A DNA stretch of 36,271 nucleotides from a virus (lineage: Duplodnaviria > Heunggongvirae > Uroviricota > Caudoviricetes). Positions within the stretch are counted from its first letter, which is position 1. The number at the start of each line of letters is the position of its first letter. The notes beneath the pieces were generated by a model. It did not search any database. It was not told the origin of the DNA and was given only the letters and a program-made list of their open reading frames with translations. The position numbers and the translations under genes are program-made. This document shows, one piece after another, positions 1,614-32,960 of this stretch. Location: the IMG/VR virus record IMGVR_UViG_2695420676_000012. One strand, written 5' to 3'.

Positions 1614-1653
1614 GCCCCTATCGTTATAATACGCGGTAGGGGCGTTTTTGTTT
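1614..1653 (+). terminator. terminator-like hairpin plus T-run
   Basis: 'gcccctA...Taggggc' inverted repeat followed by 'gtttttgttt'; overlaps the TTG-initiated extension of the recombinase ORF. Confidence 0.4.
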
Positions 1654-1662
1654 GGAAATGGT

Positions 1663-3342
1663 ATGAAAACTAAACTGTATTCGTATATTCGCTTCTCGTC
1701 TATGCGTCAGAATGATGGTTCGAGTTATGAACGACAAATCAGGATGGCGAGAGAGGTTGCGGCAAAGTATGACCTTGAACTGGTAAATGATTATCAGGAT
1801 CTGGGTGTATCTGCGTTTAAGGGTGCTAACTCCAAAACAGGGGCGCTATCTCGTTTCCTTGATGCAATAGGTAGATCCGTTCCTGTTGGTAGCTGGCTAT
1901 TCATCGAAAACTTGGACCGTTTATCCCGTGCCGATATTGTCAGTGCGCAGGAGTTATTCCTTTCAATCATCCGTAGGGGGATAACCATTGTTACTGGCAT
2001 GGATAACAAGATCTACTCGCTGGATACTGTTACCGCTAACCCGATGGACCTGATGTTCTCCATCCTTTTATTCATCCGTGGTAATGAGGAAAGCCAGACT
2101 AAGCGCAATCGTACTAACTCAAGCGCACTGATTAAGATTAAAGCCCATCAAGAAAATCCCCAGAATCCGGCAGTGGCAATCGAGGAAGTTGGAAAGAATA
2201 TGTGGTGGACTGATACCACTTCCGGTTATGTGTTGCCTCATCCTACATACTTCCCTGTTGTTCAGGAGATTGTGGAATTACGGAAGAATGGACGTTCAAC
2301 CGCCGAGATACTGGATCACCTTAACGAGACATATACACCGCCACCAGCGGTTAGTAATAAGAAGCATTCAAAATGGTCACGGGCAATGGTTGAAAGGTTG
2401 TTCCATACCCGCGCTTTGATTGGTATCAAGGAGGTCTCTGTCGATGGTGTTAACTATGAGTTAAAGGATTATTACCCTCGTGTTATTGATGATGCTACGT
2501 TCTATCACCTTAAGAAAAATATTGGTGCTAGAGCATGGAACTTTGGAGACAAGGAAGAAGTTAAACCGATCCCCCTGCTTAGTGGTATTGGCCTATTGAA
2601 ATGTGATCATTGCGGTTGCGCTATGGTTAAAGTGAAGGGAACGAACAAACGTTCTGACCAGTATCGTTATACATGTGATGCGACCCGTTCACGTAGACTT
2701 GATTGCGAGCATCCAAACTGGAGTTTTCGAGGTGATCAATTAGAGAAAGCTGTATTGCAATTGCTGGCTGATAAAATCTGGATTGCTGAGGACAAGGCTA
2801 ATCCGGTTCCGGCGTTGAAAGTACAGGTTGATGAAATATCACGCAAGATTGATAACCTGATTGCCCTTTCTGCTATGACAGGAGCAACGAAGGAGTTAGC
2901 CGATCAGATTACTACCCTCAATAGCGAGCGTGAAACACTCTACAATCAGATCAAGATGGCAGAAGAGGAAATGTATTCTGTGGACTCTCAAGGCTGGGAG
3001 AAGCTCGCAGAATTTGATTTAGAAGATGTTTATAACGAGGAACGACTAAAGGTCCGGTTTAAGATTAAGCAAGCTCTAAAGCGGATCGGGTGTAGCAGGA
3101 TTGACAGGAATAAAAACTTGTTTGTACTGGAATACATCGATGGAAAGACCCAGAGAGTTGTAATAGAAAATTCAAGAGGAACGAGGAAAGGACAAATCTT
3201 TGTCGATTTGAAAACTATCAATGATAGGCAGATTCTGGAGAGTAACGGGCTTGTTTTGCATCCATGTTTAGACATGCTGACAGATAAGAACTGGAAACCA
3301 GAAGAGGAAATACCAGGTCCATTACAGGAATTTGGAATTTAA
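1663..3342 (+). CDS. large serine recombinase (integrase/resolvase family)
   Basis: N-terminal resolvase catalytic motifs 'YIRFSSMRQ' and 'GVSAF...LFIENLDRLSR'; downstream Cys cluster 'CDHCGCAM...YRYTCD...LDCEH' (zinc ribbon) and coiled-coil segment; track ORF opens at 1648 with TTG, first ATG at 1663. Confidence 0.8.
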   Translation: MKTKLYSYIRFSSMRQNDGSSYERQIRMAREVAAKYDLELVNDYQDLGVSAFKGANSKTGALSRFLDAIGRSVPVGSWLFIENLDRLSRADIVSAQELFLSIIRRGITIVTGMDNKIYSLDTVTANPMDLMFSILLFIRGNEESQTKRNRTNSSALIKIKAHQENPQNPAVAIEEVGKNMWWTDTTSGYVLPHPTYFPVVQEIVELRKNGRSTAEILDHLNETYTPPPAVSNKKHSKWSRAMVERLFHTRALIGIKEVSVDGVNYELKDYYPRVIDDATFYHLKKNIGARAWNFGDKEEVKPIPLLSGIGLLKCDHCGCAMVKVKGTNKRSDQYRYTCDATRSRRLDCEHPNWSFRGDQLEKAVLQLLADKIWIAEDKANPVPALKVQVDEISRKIDNLIALSAMTGATKELADQITTLNSERETLYNQIKMAEEEMYSVDSQGWEKLAEFDLEDVYNEERLKVRFKIKQALKRIGCSRIDRNKNLFVLEYIDGKTQRVVIENSRGTRKGQIFVDLKTINDRQILESNGLVLHPCLDMLTDKNWKPEEEIPGPLQEFGI

Positions 3343-26338: not shown

Positions 26339-28246
26339 TTAGAACGATGTTACCCAGCTACGGCCTCTATTTGGGCGTCTGGCGATGTTTTGACGTTGCG
26401 GTCGTGTGATTGGCTTAGTTTCTTCGATTTGCTCGTCAGATTGCGATTCAGGAGCTTTTACGGGTTCTTCTTTAACGCTGTTTAAGCTGTCTTTCATTGC
26501 AATGAGTTTATCCCATGACATTTTTGAAAGGACGTAGCGAGAAGCAGCATAGCTATAAACCAGACAGTCGAGAGCCTCGTTTCGGGTACTACCTGGATTT
26601 TTCACCCAACGAACACCAGTAGTAGTACGCTTGATGGATTCACTCAAAAGCTGATCGAGATAATCATCAGGAACGGTTTCTGATATTTCTAAGCCAATAT
26701 GAGGATTATCTTTCAGGTTTCTAACCAGCATTTCACGAACAGCGGATTTACCAACGTTAACGCCCAGCATAAGCAATTCATGACCACCTGTGCGGGTAGG
26801 TTTAACCGGAATCACTGGAGCATTACCAGATGAACTACCTTTAATAGCGTGTAGGTTCTTCCACTTACCACAAATACGGTATCCGGCTTGAGTGAATCGA
26901 CCGTTTGATGTATCGAGGAAGCTGGCGAGCATTGGCACACGTTCACCATTAACGTTATAGAATTTGGTTTTCTTGAAGTTAACCAGACGATCCCATACAG
27001 GTGATTCGTATCGTTCACAGTTATGATCGTAAAAGCTACGGTGATCCAGAATGTAAACCTTATCTTTCGCTACACCTAAGATGGTAGATTCTGCGCGATC
27101 CAATTGCTGGTCAATTCCTGAGCACAAGAAAATCACGTCATCAGGGATATTCTCGATAGAAACATCTGTTTTGAGTTGTTCCAGTTCATTTGCTTCTACT
27201 GCCGTGTCCTGATCATCGTATACCTTGCCTAACACGGTGTTATAAAATGATTGTAAATCAAAGGATTGCCACGCATGACTAAAATCAACCACACAAGCGC
27301 GGATCGTGCTGAAAGGTGAATACAGACGGCTAATCCAGAATCCTGCTACTTCACTTTCACGGGTTGCTCTCCACTCGCCTTGCGCTACTGCCCTGATTCG
27401 TTCCCCTTCTGTCCATGCGTTCTTACAGTGGGGGCAAATATAACGAGCGGTATCAGGATCGGGTAAGTTCTTACCATCGATGTTACGCCATTCAAATTGA
27501 ACGTTTTCCCACTCGATCACCTGGTGTTCCCCGCAATGAGGACACGGAACAAAAAACATACGCATATCGCTTGATAACCATTGCTGGTTAATGCTTCCGA
27601 GCTTACTGGTCGGGGTACTGGATACGACTAATCGGCCTTCATCGCCAAAGGTAGTTAAACGGTTAGCAGCCAGTGCCACCGGATCACCTTCTTCTGAGGC
27701 TGTAGCAGCATCGATTTCGTCTAGTAGTCCGACCTTTGCGGTCTTACCACGTAGGGTCGATGGACTGGTTAGCGATACCATGTACAGGAAGTGATTCGTT
27801 TTTAGCTGTAGCTGGTTATTGTTGTTAACCGCATTGCGATCATTCTTGTCTGTAACCACGTCTTTTAATGCATCACATGCTTCGATAGACGGTCGGATCT
27901 TACCAGCGAGATATTGAGACATTTCTTTAGCGGTTGATTGTCCGATAATCATATTGCATGGATCGTTAGCCATCTGGTTAAACAGGATGCCGTTCAAGAT
28001 GGTAGTCTTTCCGATCTGCGCACTGGTCATCAGAACATACTTTTTCTTGTTCTCAAGGAAAGGAGCATCAATCATACCTTTCTGGAATGACAGCAATTTA
28101 ACTTTATCCCCAGCTTGAGGACCATCTACCAGCACCATATTAGCTTCGCACCATTCAGAAGGAAGGAGTTTAGGCGGTGGCGTAATATATTTGGCTGCAT
28201 TTCTGAGAATCTTTTTTAATTTGGCCTTATTAGAAATTAGTTTCAT
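26339..28246 (-). CDS. terminase large subunit, lambda gpA family, 635 aa
   Basis: Walker-A-like 'AQIGKTT'; 'PCPHCGEHQ' and 'YICPHCK' zinc-finger-like motifs; 'GIDQQLDR'; '[14 protein letters not shown]'; order and spacing match gpA as I recall it. Confidence 0.9.
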
Positions 28247-28289
28247 GTAATTACCCTCATTACGAAATATGAAGGTATTTATTAAATTG

Positions 28290-28317
28290 TTGATTTTTTG
28301 ATAAATACGGGTATTAA
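28290..28317 (+). promoter_or_regulatory. sigma70-like promoter candidate for the plus-strand gene at 28334
   Basis: 'TTGATT'-16 nt-'TATTAA' in the divergent region between the terminase and 28334 genes. Confidence 0.3.
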
Positions 28318-28333: not shown

Positions 28334-28936
28334 ATGCTAATTAATCAGCAACAAAGAGATGAATTAGAATTAGCCTTGTCTTGTACCGATCATGAATATC
28401 GTTTGCCAGTAAAACATAAGCACTTAAGGACTGATTACACAACATCCGGTTTTAGCCGTGAGGAAGCGAAAGAGATTTTAATAGAATTTTACCGTGATAA
28501 TGGTTATACAGACGTTCACAACTTCTTTAAGAAGCATAGAACATCACATACAGAGTTTCGGAGAGTCCGAGATTGGTTTGATTTTGATATCAAGCGTTAT
28601 TATCGCATTGATGACGGTCCTATCTATCGGTTGCAGTGGAAGCCGATCCGAGAAGTGTTGAAACAGAAGAGATTGAATCACGCTATTACACGCTATCGTA
28701 ACGAGGCTTTTAAGAAAGGCTATGGTGATACAAGGGAATTGTTTGTAGAACTCGCTAACGTGCGATATAGCCACTATTACAACGATCCTAAGTCCTTCTT
28801 CGAAGTGCTGCGCAAGGTTGATATAAGTCGGGGTACATACTATTCACGGTTGAAGAAGTACGGGATTAAGGCAGAGTTCTTTATGTCGGTTGACGATGGA
28901 GAACTTTTTCCTATAAAATGTAAGTCCTCTAAATAA
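28334..28936 (+). CDS. basic Tyr/Arg-rich protein with C-terminal HTH-like module, 200 aa
   Basis: C-terminus '[25 protein letters not shown]' resembles the two small HTH proteins at 28966 and 32781; SD 'AAGGGGG'. Confidence 0.5.
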
Positions 28937-28965: not shown

Positions 28966-29196
28966 ATGACTATGACTACTAAAGCTACTCGCGGTCGCCC
29001 TGCCCGTTTTAATCGTGAACAACTGGCAGCGATTGTAAAAGCGTACTATCAAGCACCGAAAGGTAAAGAGAACAAAGAACGGGTATTAAATGAGCATGGC
29101 TTATCTATAGCCCAGCTATACAAATCCCTACATAAAGTTGATTTGAAATTCTTTGTTCAGGTTGACGGTGAAATGGTAGAAGCAACAGGAATTTGA
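28966..29196 (+). CDS. small HTH DNA-binding protein (RP.KF.RE...HTH module), ~76 aa
   Basis: 'GRPARFNREQLAAIVKAYY...HGLSIAQLYKSLHK...VQV'; start at ATG with SD 'GGAGAAA' (track ORF opens with GTG at 28939); paralog of 32781-32960. Confidence 0.5.
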   Translation: MTMTTKATRGRPARFNREQLAAIVKAYYQAPKGKENKERVLNEHGLSIAQLYKSLHKVDLKFFVQVDGEMVEATGI

Positions 29197-29202
29197 TTCT
29201 CT

Positions 29203-29233
29203 AGGCCAATCCTTCGGGGTTGGCCTTTTTTAT
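29203..29233 (+). terminator. Rho-independent terminator
   Basis: 'aggccaa-tccttcgggg-ttggcct' followed by 'tttttat' immediately after the 28966-29196 gene. Confidence 0.6.
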
Positions 29234-29237
29234 ATCC

Positions 29238-29453
29238 GCTCAAAACTGAGCACATCTCTAAGTCATTGATTCTTCCGATGAGTCCAGATTTGGACTGATC
29301 TATAGATGCCCTCAAAACTGAGGAGATGTGCTTAAAGTTCAGCGTATCTATCTAAGTGGTTGATTCTTTCGAGAAATTCAAACTTGAATCAATCGGCGCA
29401 AAACTGCGCTCATCTCTAACCTATTGATTCTTCCGATAAATCCAAATCTGGAT
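29238..29453. repeat. three tandem ~65-85-nt units each carrying two conserved hairpins with compensatory substitutions (candidate structured RNA / protein-binding array)
   Basis: Hairpin 1: GCTCA-AAAC-TGAGC (29238), CCTCA-AAAC-TGAGG (29310), GCGCA-AAAC-TGCGC (29396). Hairpin 2: AGTCCA-GATT-TGGACT (29281), ATTCA-AACT-TGAAT (29376), ATCCA-AATC-TGGAT (29440). Conserved 'ttgattcttccgat' between them. Confidence 0.6.
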
Positions 29454-29465
29454 GCATCAGATACA

Positions 29466-29500: not shown

Positions 29501-30334
29501 TCAGATCCCAAAATCAACAAGGGAAATTACGTTACCTGATTCACGAATCTGTTTAGCAGCTTTGTTTTGAATCAGAATAGTGTTATTTGGCTGCGGCAGT
29601 TTAAGAGTTGCTTTCTGTTCTTCTTCCAAAACGCCCAATTCAACCAGCACCGGAAGAACATCAACAGTAAACTCAAGCTGGTAATGAGCATTCATGCGGC
29701 AGAAAGACAGAGAAGAGTCATTAGCAACATACCCACACGGCTTGTTATTTTCATCATAGACGCGCTCAATGTAGCCAGCAGTACGTAAGGCCGTCAGTGC
29801 TTGTTTAACCTTCGTAGCGCCCTTTTTAGCGCCTAACAGACGTGTCATAGAATGGCTATCTACGGATTTGCGAATGTGTAGCTCAATCAGTTTTTTATTT
29901 TTGCGTTTTTCATCTAATGCCAGTTCGATCCAGTCGGTTTCTTCAAAGTCCGCATACGGGTTAACAGGAGTATTATTGGCGGTTTTCAGTTTCTCTTCCA
30001 GATAATTCCAACGGTCAACCAGTTGGCGAGTAAATTCCGGTACGTTTTGAGCAATCAAGACAATCGAATCTAAGCGACCTTGCTCACCCTCAAACACATA
30101 ATCTTTAACAGTAACAGCAAACCCTAAGTTATTGATTTTTTCGAAATTCTGCGTTGCAGGTTTTCGGATAACTTGGCGTTCAACCAGTCGGTTCATAGAA
30201 GTTTCAAGGTTTGAAAAACGAACTCCAATAAGGTCGGCAATTTCACGAAGAGTCATTTTTGCAACTTCGTTATCAACAACCAGAGACACGGAAGCAGTTT
30301 TAACAGCAGTATTCATAGTAGTAACAGTATTCAT
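29501..30334 (-). CDS. Rha-like phage regulatory protein (antirepressor-like), 277 aa
   Basis: N-terminal 'MTLREIADLIGVRFSNLETSMNRLVERQVI' resembles the Rha N-terminal DNA-binding motif; SD 'AAGGGG'. Confidence 0.45.
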   Translation of the reverse strand: MNTVTTMNTAVKTASVSLVVDNEVAKMTLREIADLIGVRFSNLETSMNRLVERQVIRKPATQNFEKINNLGFAVTVKDYVFEGEQGRLDSIVLIAQNVPEFTRQLVDRWNYLEEKLKTANNTPVNPYADFEETDWIELALDEKRKNKKLIELHIRKSVDSHSMTRLLGAKKGATKVKQALTALRTAGYIERVYDENNKPCGYVANDSSLSFCRMNAHYQLEFTVDVLPVLVELGVLEEEQKATLKLPQPNNTILIQNKAAKQIRESGNVISLVDFGI

Positions 30335-31588: not shown

Positions 31589-31846
31589 AAAGTGATCTAG
31601 AATCATCTAGTAACCAGTTAACTACTATTATCTTCAAAGTGATTATTACTATCTTTCTAGAATCAGTTAGTAACTAGTATTAAATCCCTTTCGAGAAAAT
31701 CCTTTCAGAAGTGATTCTCGATGCCACGCAGTGGCGTCGCAGACGTTTGAGAGTGAGCGAAGCGAGCGAGCAAACTAGTTAATTCCTTCTAAGACCATCT
31801 AGTATCATCTAGTTTAAATTAGTTGTTACTAGAAGTAATTGGTTAG
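31589..31846. repeat. CTAG-rich imperfect direct/palindromic repeats in an ORF-free region
   Basis: 'aaagtgat' x3 (31589, 31636, 31708); 'tctagaatca(t/g)(c/t)tagtaac(c/t)agt' x2 plus variant 'tctaagaccatctagtatcatctag'; palindromes 'agttaact', 'actagt'. Confidence 0.45.
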
Positions 31847-32017
31847 CGCTTCGCGCAGTCGGGCTACGCCCTCCTAATTATCTTTTTGGTTATTTGTTGT
31901 TTTTAGTTTTACACATGAGCGTAGCGAATGTGTTATATAATATCTATGCACGCCCGATCCCCCGCTTTTACCCCTCGCTAAGTTAATGTTTTATAAAGAG
32001 TTTTTATCACCAATCCT

Positions 32018-32216
32018 TTTCAGGGGCAAAAATGAGGGGCAAAAATTAGATTTTCAGGGGCAATTATTGGCATTTCAGGGGCAAAAATGAGGGGCAAAAT
32101 CACTGTTTCCCAGAATTTCAGGGGCAAAAATAGTAGGTTTCAGGGGCAAAAATGGGATAGTAGAATCTTGGGGATTTTATTCGGGGGCAAAAATTCAGAA
32201 TTTCAGGGGCAATTCC
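32018..32216. repeat. direct-repeat (iteron-like) array: 9 copies of (T)TCAGGGGCAA(A)AAT core
   Basis: 'GGGGCAA' at 32023, 32036, 32057, 32078, 32091, 32121, 32143, 32184, 32206; exact 27-nt duplicate 'tttcaggggcaaaaatgaggggcaaaa' at 32018 and 32073; spacings 13/21/21/13/30/22/41/22 nt. Confidence 0.8.
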
Positions 32217-32408
32217 CATCAAATATTTTGATAGAAAATTCTTGTATATTATTTAATCAAAAAATCACCAAAAAGTGGCGTAAGTTAATGATTTAAAAAG
32301 AATTGTCAAAAGGTCTCCGTGCTATAATAGGTTATAAAGGTTGATAATCCTGATCTACAATTTTCAAACAAAAATTTTGATAGTCATTTCTCGCTTAGGT
32401 CAAGTGCA

Positions 32409-32780: not shown

Positions 32781-32960
32781 ATGGCTAGACCTGTTAAGTT
32801 CACTCGTGAAATGATTGTTGATATTGCTAAACGCTTTTACAGCGACACTGAGCGAGGCGGGGAAAACTTCTTTAAGAAGGAAGGAATTGATAGAAGCGGA
32901 TTCTACAAGCTAATGAAGAAATACGAAATTCAGGTAAAGATTAACGTTCAAGTTTGTTAA
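32781..32960 (+). CDS. small HTH DNA-binding protein, paralog of 28966-29196 (~59 aa)
   Basis: 'ARPVKFTREMIVDIAKRFY...GIDRSGFYKLMKKYEIQVKINVQV'; start at ATG with SD 'GAGGA' (track ORF opens with GTG at 32766). Confidence 0.5.
   Translation: MARPVKFTREMIVDIAKRFYSDTERGGENFFKKEGIDRSGFYKLMKKYEIQVKINVQVC

Follow-up and report, generated by a model that had tools for sequence, protein, structure and literature searches.

A variable hairpin array beside a Rha-like phage gene appears to be assembled from copies of a palindrome within Rha coding sequences

We analyzed a tandem array of small hairpins at 29238-29453 of the temperate phage genome IMGVR_UViG_2695420676_000012; "the window" denotes this whole record of 36,271 nucleotides (~36 kb). 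The array fills the gap between two convergent transcription units, a plus-strand unit on its left and a minus-strand unit with a Rha/Ant-like gene on its right. Judged from sequence comparisons, its elements are short non-coding copies of a hairpin-centred stretch of Rha (PF09669) genes, and the copies come from several alleles. Our preferred reading, to which we give a little better than even credence, is that the array is a recombination-built, dispensable stack of these gene-derived palindromes, much like a bacterial interspersed mosaic element (BIME). Many temperate phages encode Rha proteins, which are poorly understood and whose link to integration host factor (IHF) dates from the 1980s.

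The window array was compared with related loci (given L numbers here) by short-word BLAST, with all arrays masked. Three elements had close counterparts inside Rha genes. Element H1 (29237-29257, plus strand) consists of the hairpin GCTCA-AAAC-TGAGC (29238-29251) and the 3' flank ACATCT; it agreed at 21 of 21 positions with a Rha gene segment of L195 and L010 that encodes D-V-L-S-F-E-R on the gene strand. Element H6 (29395-29416, plus strand), the hairpin GCGCA-AAAC-TGCGC (29396-29409) with the flank TCATCTC, matched a segment encoding D-E-R-N-F-A-P in the Rha genes of L005, L006, L012, and L014 (21/22 identical). Element B1, CCGATGAGTCCAGATTTGGACTGATCT (29275-29301, plus strand), has an inner hairpin AGTCCA-GATT-TGGACT at 29281-29296 and an outer helix GAT/ATC; its counterpart in the Rha gene of the Salmonella locus L197 encodes D-Q-S-K-T-G-L-I-G (26/27 identical). 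All three matches shared one Rha protein position, immediately after the RDIxxM helix, and ran in gene orientation. The stem types of two more elements also occur in Rha genes: that of element X in Salmonella phage PK1 (CCTCA-AATT-TGAGG) and that of element B3 in L016 (AATCCA-ATTT-TGGATT, gene strand). None of the array hairpins was the resident Rha allele's own. Each array hairpin therefore represents the intragenic hairpin of a different Rha allele, and the stem differences between units are inherited from Rha allelic diversity.

The linkers between the hairpins can be traced to the same genes. The original prediction had described a conserved single-stranded motif joining the two hairpins of each unit. 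Its three copies are present (TTGATTCTTYCGA; four matches in the whole window versus 0.23 expected), but the motif is not free-standing: it is homologous to the Rha stretch that codes for E-(K/R)-I-N-N-L-G, and the fourth window match lies inside the resident Rha-like gene, at 30132-30144. There it forms part of an intragenic parent element, cctaagttattgattttttcgaaattctgcgttgcaggttttcgg (30123-30167 as listed on the plus strand), in which cctaagttattgattttttcga is followed by the hairpin aattctgcgttgcaggttttcgg and which carries an IHF consensus match at 30125-30137 (minus strand). cctaagttattgattttttcga encodes F-E-K-I-N-N-L-G on the minus strand, the whole region reading ...P-A-T-Q-N-F-E-K-I-N-N-L-G. 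A covariance model (R1) built from array modules only recognized the resident gene at 30123-30150 with 32.7 bits (E 2.5e-7) and gave full-length matches in the Rha genes of L016 (51.2 bits), L004, L008, and L020 (43.6 bits), and L018 (37.5 bits). Over 44 nt, the resident parent segment shared 88.6% identity with the end of the L017 array. H1, H6, B1, and the linkers all match in the resident Rha gene's orientation, the exception being the inverted element H4.

The array had been described as three tandem units of two hairpins each, in a convergent intergenic region bounded by two terminators. The setting was as described, every sequence quoted was found in place, and the six hairpins stand; however, the first hairpin of unit 2 had been misassigned and a seventh hairpin missed. 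It is this seventh hairpin (29330-29343), and not CCTCA...TGAGG, that aligns with the first hairpins of units 1 and 3 (repeat families D1-D3). CCTCA-AAAC-TGAGG is an extra element, X (29310-29323, plus strand), between units 1 and 2, with the direct repeat AGATG on both flanks. The seventh hairpin, GCTTA-AAGT-TCAGC, forms the core of H4 (29325-29348, plus strand), an imperfect extended hairpin GATGTGCT-TAAAGTTC-AGCGTATC whose counterpart is perfect in L010 and L183 (GATGCGCT...AGCGCATC). H4 is an inverted copy of an H1-type element (inverted repeat I2; ViennaRNA local fold). The segment gagatgtgct (29323-29332), correctly recognized before as the reverse complement of agcacatctc (29249-29258), is part of the 28-nt repeat I2. 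The remaining second hairpins are B2 (ATTCA-AACT-TGAAT, 29376-29389, plus strand), with an outer CGA/TCG helix at 29370-29395, and B3 (ATCCA-AATC-TGGAT, 29440-29453, plus strand), enclosed in a GAT/ATC helix at 29435-29458; around the second hairpins there is thus an outer helix of 3 bp, either GAT/ATC or CGA/TCG. The linkers lie, on the plus strand, at 29257-29279 (TCTAAGTCATTGATTCTTCCGAT), 29349-29375 (TATCTAAGTGGTTGATTCTTTCGAGAA), and 29415-29439 (TCTAACCTATTGATTCTTCCGATAA), and the module at 29351-29395 scored 62.9 bits with the array covariance model. Hairpin centres are spaced by 44, 28, 21, 45, 20, and 44 bp.

Perfect hairpins with 5-bp stems and 4-nt loops numbered six in 216 nt, whereas 100 shuffles of the window gave at most 4 per 220 nt (mean 2.6), which excludes a chance origin of the cluster. 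Folding z-scores of the array were about -4.5 against shuffles. The only open reading frames (ORFs) across it are mechanical TTG ORFs of 48-52 aa. Unit 3 also holds ccgataaatcc, which resembles the H-NS motif tCGATAAATT, a likeness to which we attach no weight.

The observation that pairing is kept while stems differ was borne out, and it extends to relatives. In 26 array hairpins, picked by their 3' flank and not by pairing, 91.5% of the cells were paired and 31 cells were changed on both sides; none of 500 shuffles reached this level, and slid controls gave 20-48%. In 11 modules of linker and second hairpin, the inner five pairs were 100% paired, with both-sided changes in three pairs. The compensatory changes had been taken to argue for selection on structure; the stem differences are the inherited diversity of Rha alleles.

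We then compared the inter-terminator spacers of the window and 30 relatives (31 loci). The spacer took 25 distinct forms of 14-247 nt, and in six loci it was an empty 14 nt without a hairpin. The number of linker modules ranged from 0 to 3. Even L001-L004 and L020, whose large terminase (TerL) is 99% identical to that of the window, had spacers of 14, 61, 64, and 171 nt with different contents. Homology between the window and its relatives runs to ~29231-29260, breaks, and resumes inside or beyond the Rha-like gene, and the Rha alleles are highly mosaic among relatives. Several loci record individual rearrangements. In L181 the first hairpins of units 1 and 3 have recombined by crossover, which left a chimeric, mismatched hairpin, in L012 the unit 2 linker is fused to the second hairpin of unit 3, and L024 has a unit-3-type hairpin at the unit-1 position, a gene conversion. 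Uncompensated stem mutations were found in L182 and L187, and indels between the relatives' arrays were not multiples of three. The empty 14-nt spacer reads atacctacagatac in L003 and L020 and, as its exact reverse complement, gtatctgtaggtat in L013. On either side of it lie the T-run and the A-run of the terminators, which are inverted repeats of each other (I5); together, these features suggest inversion of the whole inter-terminator segment. Compared with the empty L013, L005 carries a 56-nt insert flanked by the 4-nt direct repeat TAGG, which may stem from duplication of a target or from microhomology where an illegitimate join formed.

The array belongs to a single locus. The prophage is chromosomal in 55 of 5426 complete Escherichia coli genomes, and blastn against all 5426 found array-like sequence in 21 of these 55, at one or two places each; strains L3Cip3, 266917_2, and PD23 carry an array identical to that of the window. 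All eight matches inspected lay at this prophage locus, and the second places in a record are probably off-register self-matches. Thus, the array is not a genome-wide repeat family. Beyond this phage group, pattern scans of IMG/VR (ATCTATAGATGCNNNCAAA, TCTAAGTNNTTGATTCTT, and CCCTCAAAACTGAGGG) picked up nothing but isolated chance matches and ordinary terminators. Gene order is preserved in the more distant relatives from Salmonella and Proteus, most of which have the empty spacer. Arrays of the same kind were found in two Salmonella prophages (L191 and L192) whose flanking protein is only 53-60% identical. In L191 (3600-3745), the 74-aa gene and the left terminator are missing, and a series of three linker-plus-hairpin units sets in right at the stop codon that ends the 200-aa gene. 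As no terminator intervenes, the L191 array would be a 3' untranslated region (UTR).

Taken together, these results favor a stack of palindromes derived from Rha genes and built by recombination. In this scenario, the Rha cassette would have been exchanged again and again, with joins at the palindromes or close by, leaving short copies as by-products that piled up in the transcription-free gap between the convergent terminators; by its position, the array sits where neither operon should transcribe. The array grows, shrinks, and is rearranged by unequal crossing-over and gene conversion between units, and the phage would not need it for growth. Any action would probably be at the DNA level: the array could serve as an IHF-bound palindromic spacer like BIME-1, or as a homology patch for recombination of the Rha cassette.

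Several points weigh against this reading. The right-hand homology break lies at ~30269 and not at the intragenic hairpin, and H4 is inverted. Simple decay of old genes should not leave just the hairpin-centred 20-45 nt of five or more alleles, lined up in tandem; that these pieces survive suggests a mechanism that targets palindromes or selection on the copies. Arrays beside flanking proteins of 53-60% identity in L191 and L192 indicate that the feature is old or recurrent. Dispensability assumes that the array-less prophages are viable. Finally, the IHF-consensus positions are invariant in these non-coding copies whereas the four N positions vary, which hints at function.

All three linkers match the IHF consensus WATCAANNNNTTR on the minus strand, at 29259-29271 (AATCAATGACTTA), 29353-29365 (AATCAACCACTTA), and 29417-29429 (AATCAATAGGTTA). 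The window holds nine matches versus 3.7 expected; the linkers account for three of the nine, the resident gene for one, and the promoter region between TerL and the 200-aa gene for another. This last match, at 28283-28295 (minus strand), lies in an 87-bp divergent promoter region. The conserved AATCAATAACTTA matches the IHF core consensus, and the 13-nt match coincides with the I-N-N-L coding in the parent gene. The array may bind IHF, which would make it a protein-binding array in one form, one of the candidates named in the original prediction.

The intragenic hairpin is itself conserved. In nine alleles read on the gene strand, 95.6% of the cells were paired, with ten both-sided changes; 0 of 500 shuffles reached this value, and slid controls gave 13-47%. 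The allele sample is small (nine counted formally and two by eye), and the null consists of shuffles and slid controls that are not codon-aware. The stem-loops lie at 4057-4077 of L195, 4215-4236 of L006, 5082-5108 of L197, 4263-4307 of L004, 3574-3618 of L016, about 1570-1640 of L234, and about 1555-1600 of L236. The peptides encoded there differ (VLSFER, ERNFAP, QSKTGL, ESKFGR, QLKTEF, and ESNFGF), and codons covary as complements: CTC with GAG (L-E), TCC with GGA (S-G), and CGC with GCG (R-A). The same hairpin, followed by GA(A/G)(G/A)AAATCAATAACTTAGG, also occurs in Rha-family genes of the Salmonella Jerseyviruses PK1 and FSL SP-101 and of the P1-like coliphage D6; in D6, stem and codons are offset by one base. 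Differing peptides, covarying codons, and the shift in D6 point to selection on nucleic acid rather than on protein. The hairpin and its IHF-consensus stretch may be a regulatory nucleic-acid element within the coding sequence of a widespread Rha/antirepressor-like subfamily, with members in these prophages, Jerseyvirus, and D6, and the extragenic array a functional bank of its copies; we hold this view tentatively and place it well short of even chances. If it is right, the constraint is strong enough to force amino-acid covariation (L-E, S-G, R-A), the element could be the site where IHF or an RNA-binding factor controls Rha, and the array copies would either titrate this factor or act as sequence donors in conversion of the gene.

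A related reading, no firmer in our estimate, makes the units functional copies of this Rha cis-module of hairpin and IHF site. They would act as decoys that titrate IHF, a hairpin-binding protein, or an RNase, or as an IHF-bent barrier between the operons. PMC4936722, with reference to Henthorn and Friedman 1995, reports that IHF regulates rha and that rha harms the growth of the phage when the host is IHF-deficient. The module is conserved in Rha genes of unrelated phages against amino-acid conservation, the IHF positions of the non-coding copies are the invariant ones, arrays recur in the divergent Salmonella prophages, and most hairpin-centre spacings are near whole helical turns. However, a decoy or barrier fits poorly with the empty spacer seen in 6 of 31 close and most of the divergent relatives, with linker modules that vary from 0 to 3, and with the persistence of chimeric or mismatched hairpins (L181, L182, and L187). 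The array hairpins are not those of the resident allele, and IHF binding, predicted from the 13-nt consensus only, may be a by-product of I-N-N-L coding.

The more useful outcome is the parent element: a stem-loop, often followed by an IHF consensus, kept in the Rha coding sequence at the cost of amino-acid identity. It offers a concrete, mutable target for the study of rha control, and the polymorphic array supplies natural variants of 0 to 7 copies for a dosage effect.

Two further readings appear unlikely, to about the same degree. In the first, the array is a store of silent partial cassettes, and conversion into the expressed Rha gene through the linker and the GATG/CATC flanks switches the hairpin-encoded peptide. 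The matched fragments do share the gene's orientation, the array holds hairpins of several non-resident alleles with conserved flanks, gene conversion between units occurs (L024), and Rha alleles are highly mosaic. Yet the fragments are 20-45 nt long, many lack a reading frame or linker, and one is inverted; no recombinase or target site was identified, and no two relatives were found whose only difference is a conversion tract in the gene.

The second reading treats the units as small RNAs or 3'-UTR stem-loops, the plus strand acting as antisense to Rha mRNA, as P22 sar or P1 c4 act on ant, and the minus strand as sense sponges or stabilizers after read-through. A repeated small RNA or riboregulator had been the other candidate of the original prediction, and our results do not support it. 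A consensus scan of 29233-29462 found no sigma-70-type promoter. The only terminators at the array are the two strong flanking ones, both of which face inward from outside, so no unit has its own 3' end. Rfam gave no match in the window at the gathering threshold, and at E<=1 only weak matches on the flanking terminators. The two strands fold alike (z -4.66 and -4.34), wobble-type mismatches are even between them (2 G-T versus 2 A-C), and presence of the array is polymorphic among near-identical prophages. On the other side stand the L191 array, directly downstream from the stop codon of the 200-aa gene, the complementarity of the plus-strand linker to Rha mRNA over ~24 nt, and two G.U pairs that the intragenic hairpin shows on the gene-sense strand; the linker alone is complementary to the resident allele, however, and imperfectly so. 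The Pas small RNAs of pathogenic E. coli (bioRxiv 10.64898/2026.05.13.724894) were considered and set aside as unrelated, their context being different. We conclude that tandem covarying hairpins need not mark an RNA gene, as they can derive from a gene-internal palindrome and recombination.

It is very improbable that the hairpins are mobile palindromes of the repetitive extragenic palindromic (REP)/BIME type, spread by an HUH (Y1) transposase acting on single-stranded DNA hairpins. Short palindromes are clustered in both orientations with linkers, the linkers are of IHF type as in BIME-1 (PMC3333891), copy number at the locus varies, and the L005 insert is bounded by TAGG on comparison with L013. 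This reading is largely refuted by the distribution, with array-like sequence in only 21 of 5426 E. coli genomes, the eight inspected cases all at the prophage locus, and the IMG/VR scans confining the family to this phage group. The hairpins are 14-26 nt long with flanks AT(G/C)N ... N(G/C)AT(C/G)T and no GTAG tag. No Y1 transposase (REP-associated tyrosine transposase, RAYT), HUH protein, or relaxase was found among the ORFs scanned with Pfam and PHROGs, some small ORFs being left unscanned.

We give equally little credence to a packaging (cosB-like) or replication (iteron) site for a phage protein such as the neighboring 200-aa or 74-aa protein: the array lies ~1 kb from a lambda-type TerL without a small-terminase gene upstream, its repeat-flanked IHF sites recall lambda cosB, and CCCTCAAAAC(T)GAGGG resembles the lambda ori iterons ATCCCTCAAAACGAGGGA, but prophages with 99% identical TerL have empty or unrelated spacers, the hairpins all differ and are polymorphic in presence, CCCTCAAAACTGAGGG arrays occur in no other IMG/VR phage, and a separate iteron array exists at 32014-32217. 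The resemblance to the lambda ori iterons was rejected, as the spacing differs and nothing else supports it, and so was a relationship of the 200-aa protein to lambda O (hhalign probability 0.04).

In the separate array, the iteron-like motif (TTTC)AGGGGCAAAAAT is repeated at least nine times, in most cases every 21-22 bp. The surrounding 1.7 kb are low in GC and poor in ORFs, and the array is likely an origin or operator array. At 31596-31820, upstream of minus-strand early genes, four TCTAGAATCATCTAGTAAC-like 23-mers (family D4) and several GC-rich hairpins are possible operators.

The hairpin array is bordered on both sides by intrinsic terminators. On its left, the terminator at 29203-29232 (plus strand; 10-bp stem with 6 GC pairs and a T-run) ends the operon of the 200-aa and 74/85-aa genes and is kept in relatives. 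On its right, the terminator of the Rha-like operon at 29494-29465 (minus strand) has a 10-bp stem with 8 GC pairs. In many relatives, though not in the window, the iteron-like motif seen at 32014-32217 recurs in the Rha-gene terminator beside the array, where it makes up the 3' arm and the tail (as TTCAGGGGCAAAAAT within aaaaaagcccctgaaattcaggggcaaaaatta). The resident Rha/Ant-like gene (29501-30334, minus strand, 277 aa), whose family is the apparent source of the array elements, matches PHROG 63 "anti-repressor Ant" with E 2.3e-15. Its homologues are annotated in RefSeq as Rha family transcriptional regulators, and those in relatives carry PF09669.

The left operon comprises two unannotated plus-strand genes, the 200-aa gene (28334-28936) and the 74-aa gene (28966-29196; 74/76 or 74/85 aa), which adjoins the array. 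The 200-aa protein had no sequence match in Pfam, PHROG, NCBIfam, or PDB; its AlphaFold model (pLDDT 74) predicts two repeats of three helices and a beta-hairpin. It holds two further copies of a ~50-aa module that it shares with the 74/76-aa protein, and an unlisted 59-aa ORF (MARPVKFTREMIVDIAKRFYSD...) at 32781-32960 (plus strand) is a paralogue of the 74/76-aa protein (BLASTP E 2e-7). For this family of 59-aa, 74-aa, and 200-aa proteins, Pfam, PHROG, and NCBIfam gave no match; all its known members are hypothetical proteins encoded by prophages of E. coli, Salmonella, and Proteus.

Elsewhere, the genome carries a large serine integrase gene (1648-3342) and a minus-strand tail and head module that includes a lambda-family portal. 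TerL (26339-28246), assigned as lambda-type by its GpA_ATPase and GpA_nuclease domain matches, is the first gene of this module. No small-terminase gene was found upstream of it on the same strand, and neither cos nor the small subunit was identified in the window; nor were tRNA genes found. Megablast against 50,697 deposited phage records gave no near relative of the region (distant blastn gave chance matches only), and a TerL search of GTDB representative genomes gave no relative. Related contigs in IMG/VR numbered 22, with TerL 77-99% identical. Among isolated phages, the closest TerL was that of PQ671644.1 (Escherichia phage DCP80; 1734-3716), at 43% identity. PQ671644.1 is a 141-kb record classed as Straboviridae (T4-like), in which a block of lambda-type gpA terminase, portal, and capsid genes is unexpected and may reflect chimeric assembly.

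Among known systems, the rha genes of phi80 and P22 belong to the same family (PF09669) as the resident gene. They share the IHF link, and the module described here carries an intragenic IHF consensus. The rha literature concerns the gene and its phenotype, and its accessible part does not mention extragenic tandem copies. The lambda ori iterons, sites of the O protein, are likewise palindromes centred on CAAAAC (ATCCCTCAAAACGAGGGA) and spaced by ~20-24 bp; they differ in arm spacing by 1-3 nt, and the array hairpins differ from one another at a site that appears dispensable.

Two other comparisons concern modular exchange. In T4-type phages, promoter early stem-loop (PeSL) cassettes border variable genes, and a role in modular exchange has been proposed for them (PMC2839356, PMC4122927). 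Like them, the array is made of stem-loop repeats that sit where the homology of close relatives breaks. However, PeSLs unite an early promoter and a terminator and lie on both sides of each variable ORF, whereas the array is promoterless, stacked at one site, and apparently derived from genes. The gene remnants at mosaic junctions of temperate phages are also fragments of old alleles beside an exchanged cassette, in gene orientation; the array differs in keeping only the hairpin-centred 20-45 nt of several alleles, in tandem and with pairing preserved.

A further parallel is E. coli BIME-1 (RIB/RIP), in which paired REP palindromes flank a linker with an IHF site; it keeps complementarity between variant palindromes and varies in copy number per locus among strains (PMC3333891). 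The array resembles it in having palindromes in both orientations (I2 and D1-D3), stem variants that stay complementary, linkers with an IHF consensus, an intergenic position, and a variable copy number. It differs in that it is not dispersed but known from one locus of one prophage group, lacks GTAG and a RAYT, and has AT-rich hairpins of 14 nt in place of GC-rich REPs of 30-40 nt. Its elements appear to come from the coding sequence of the neighboring gene family.

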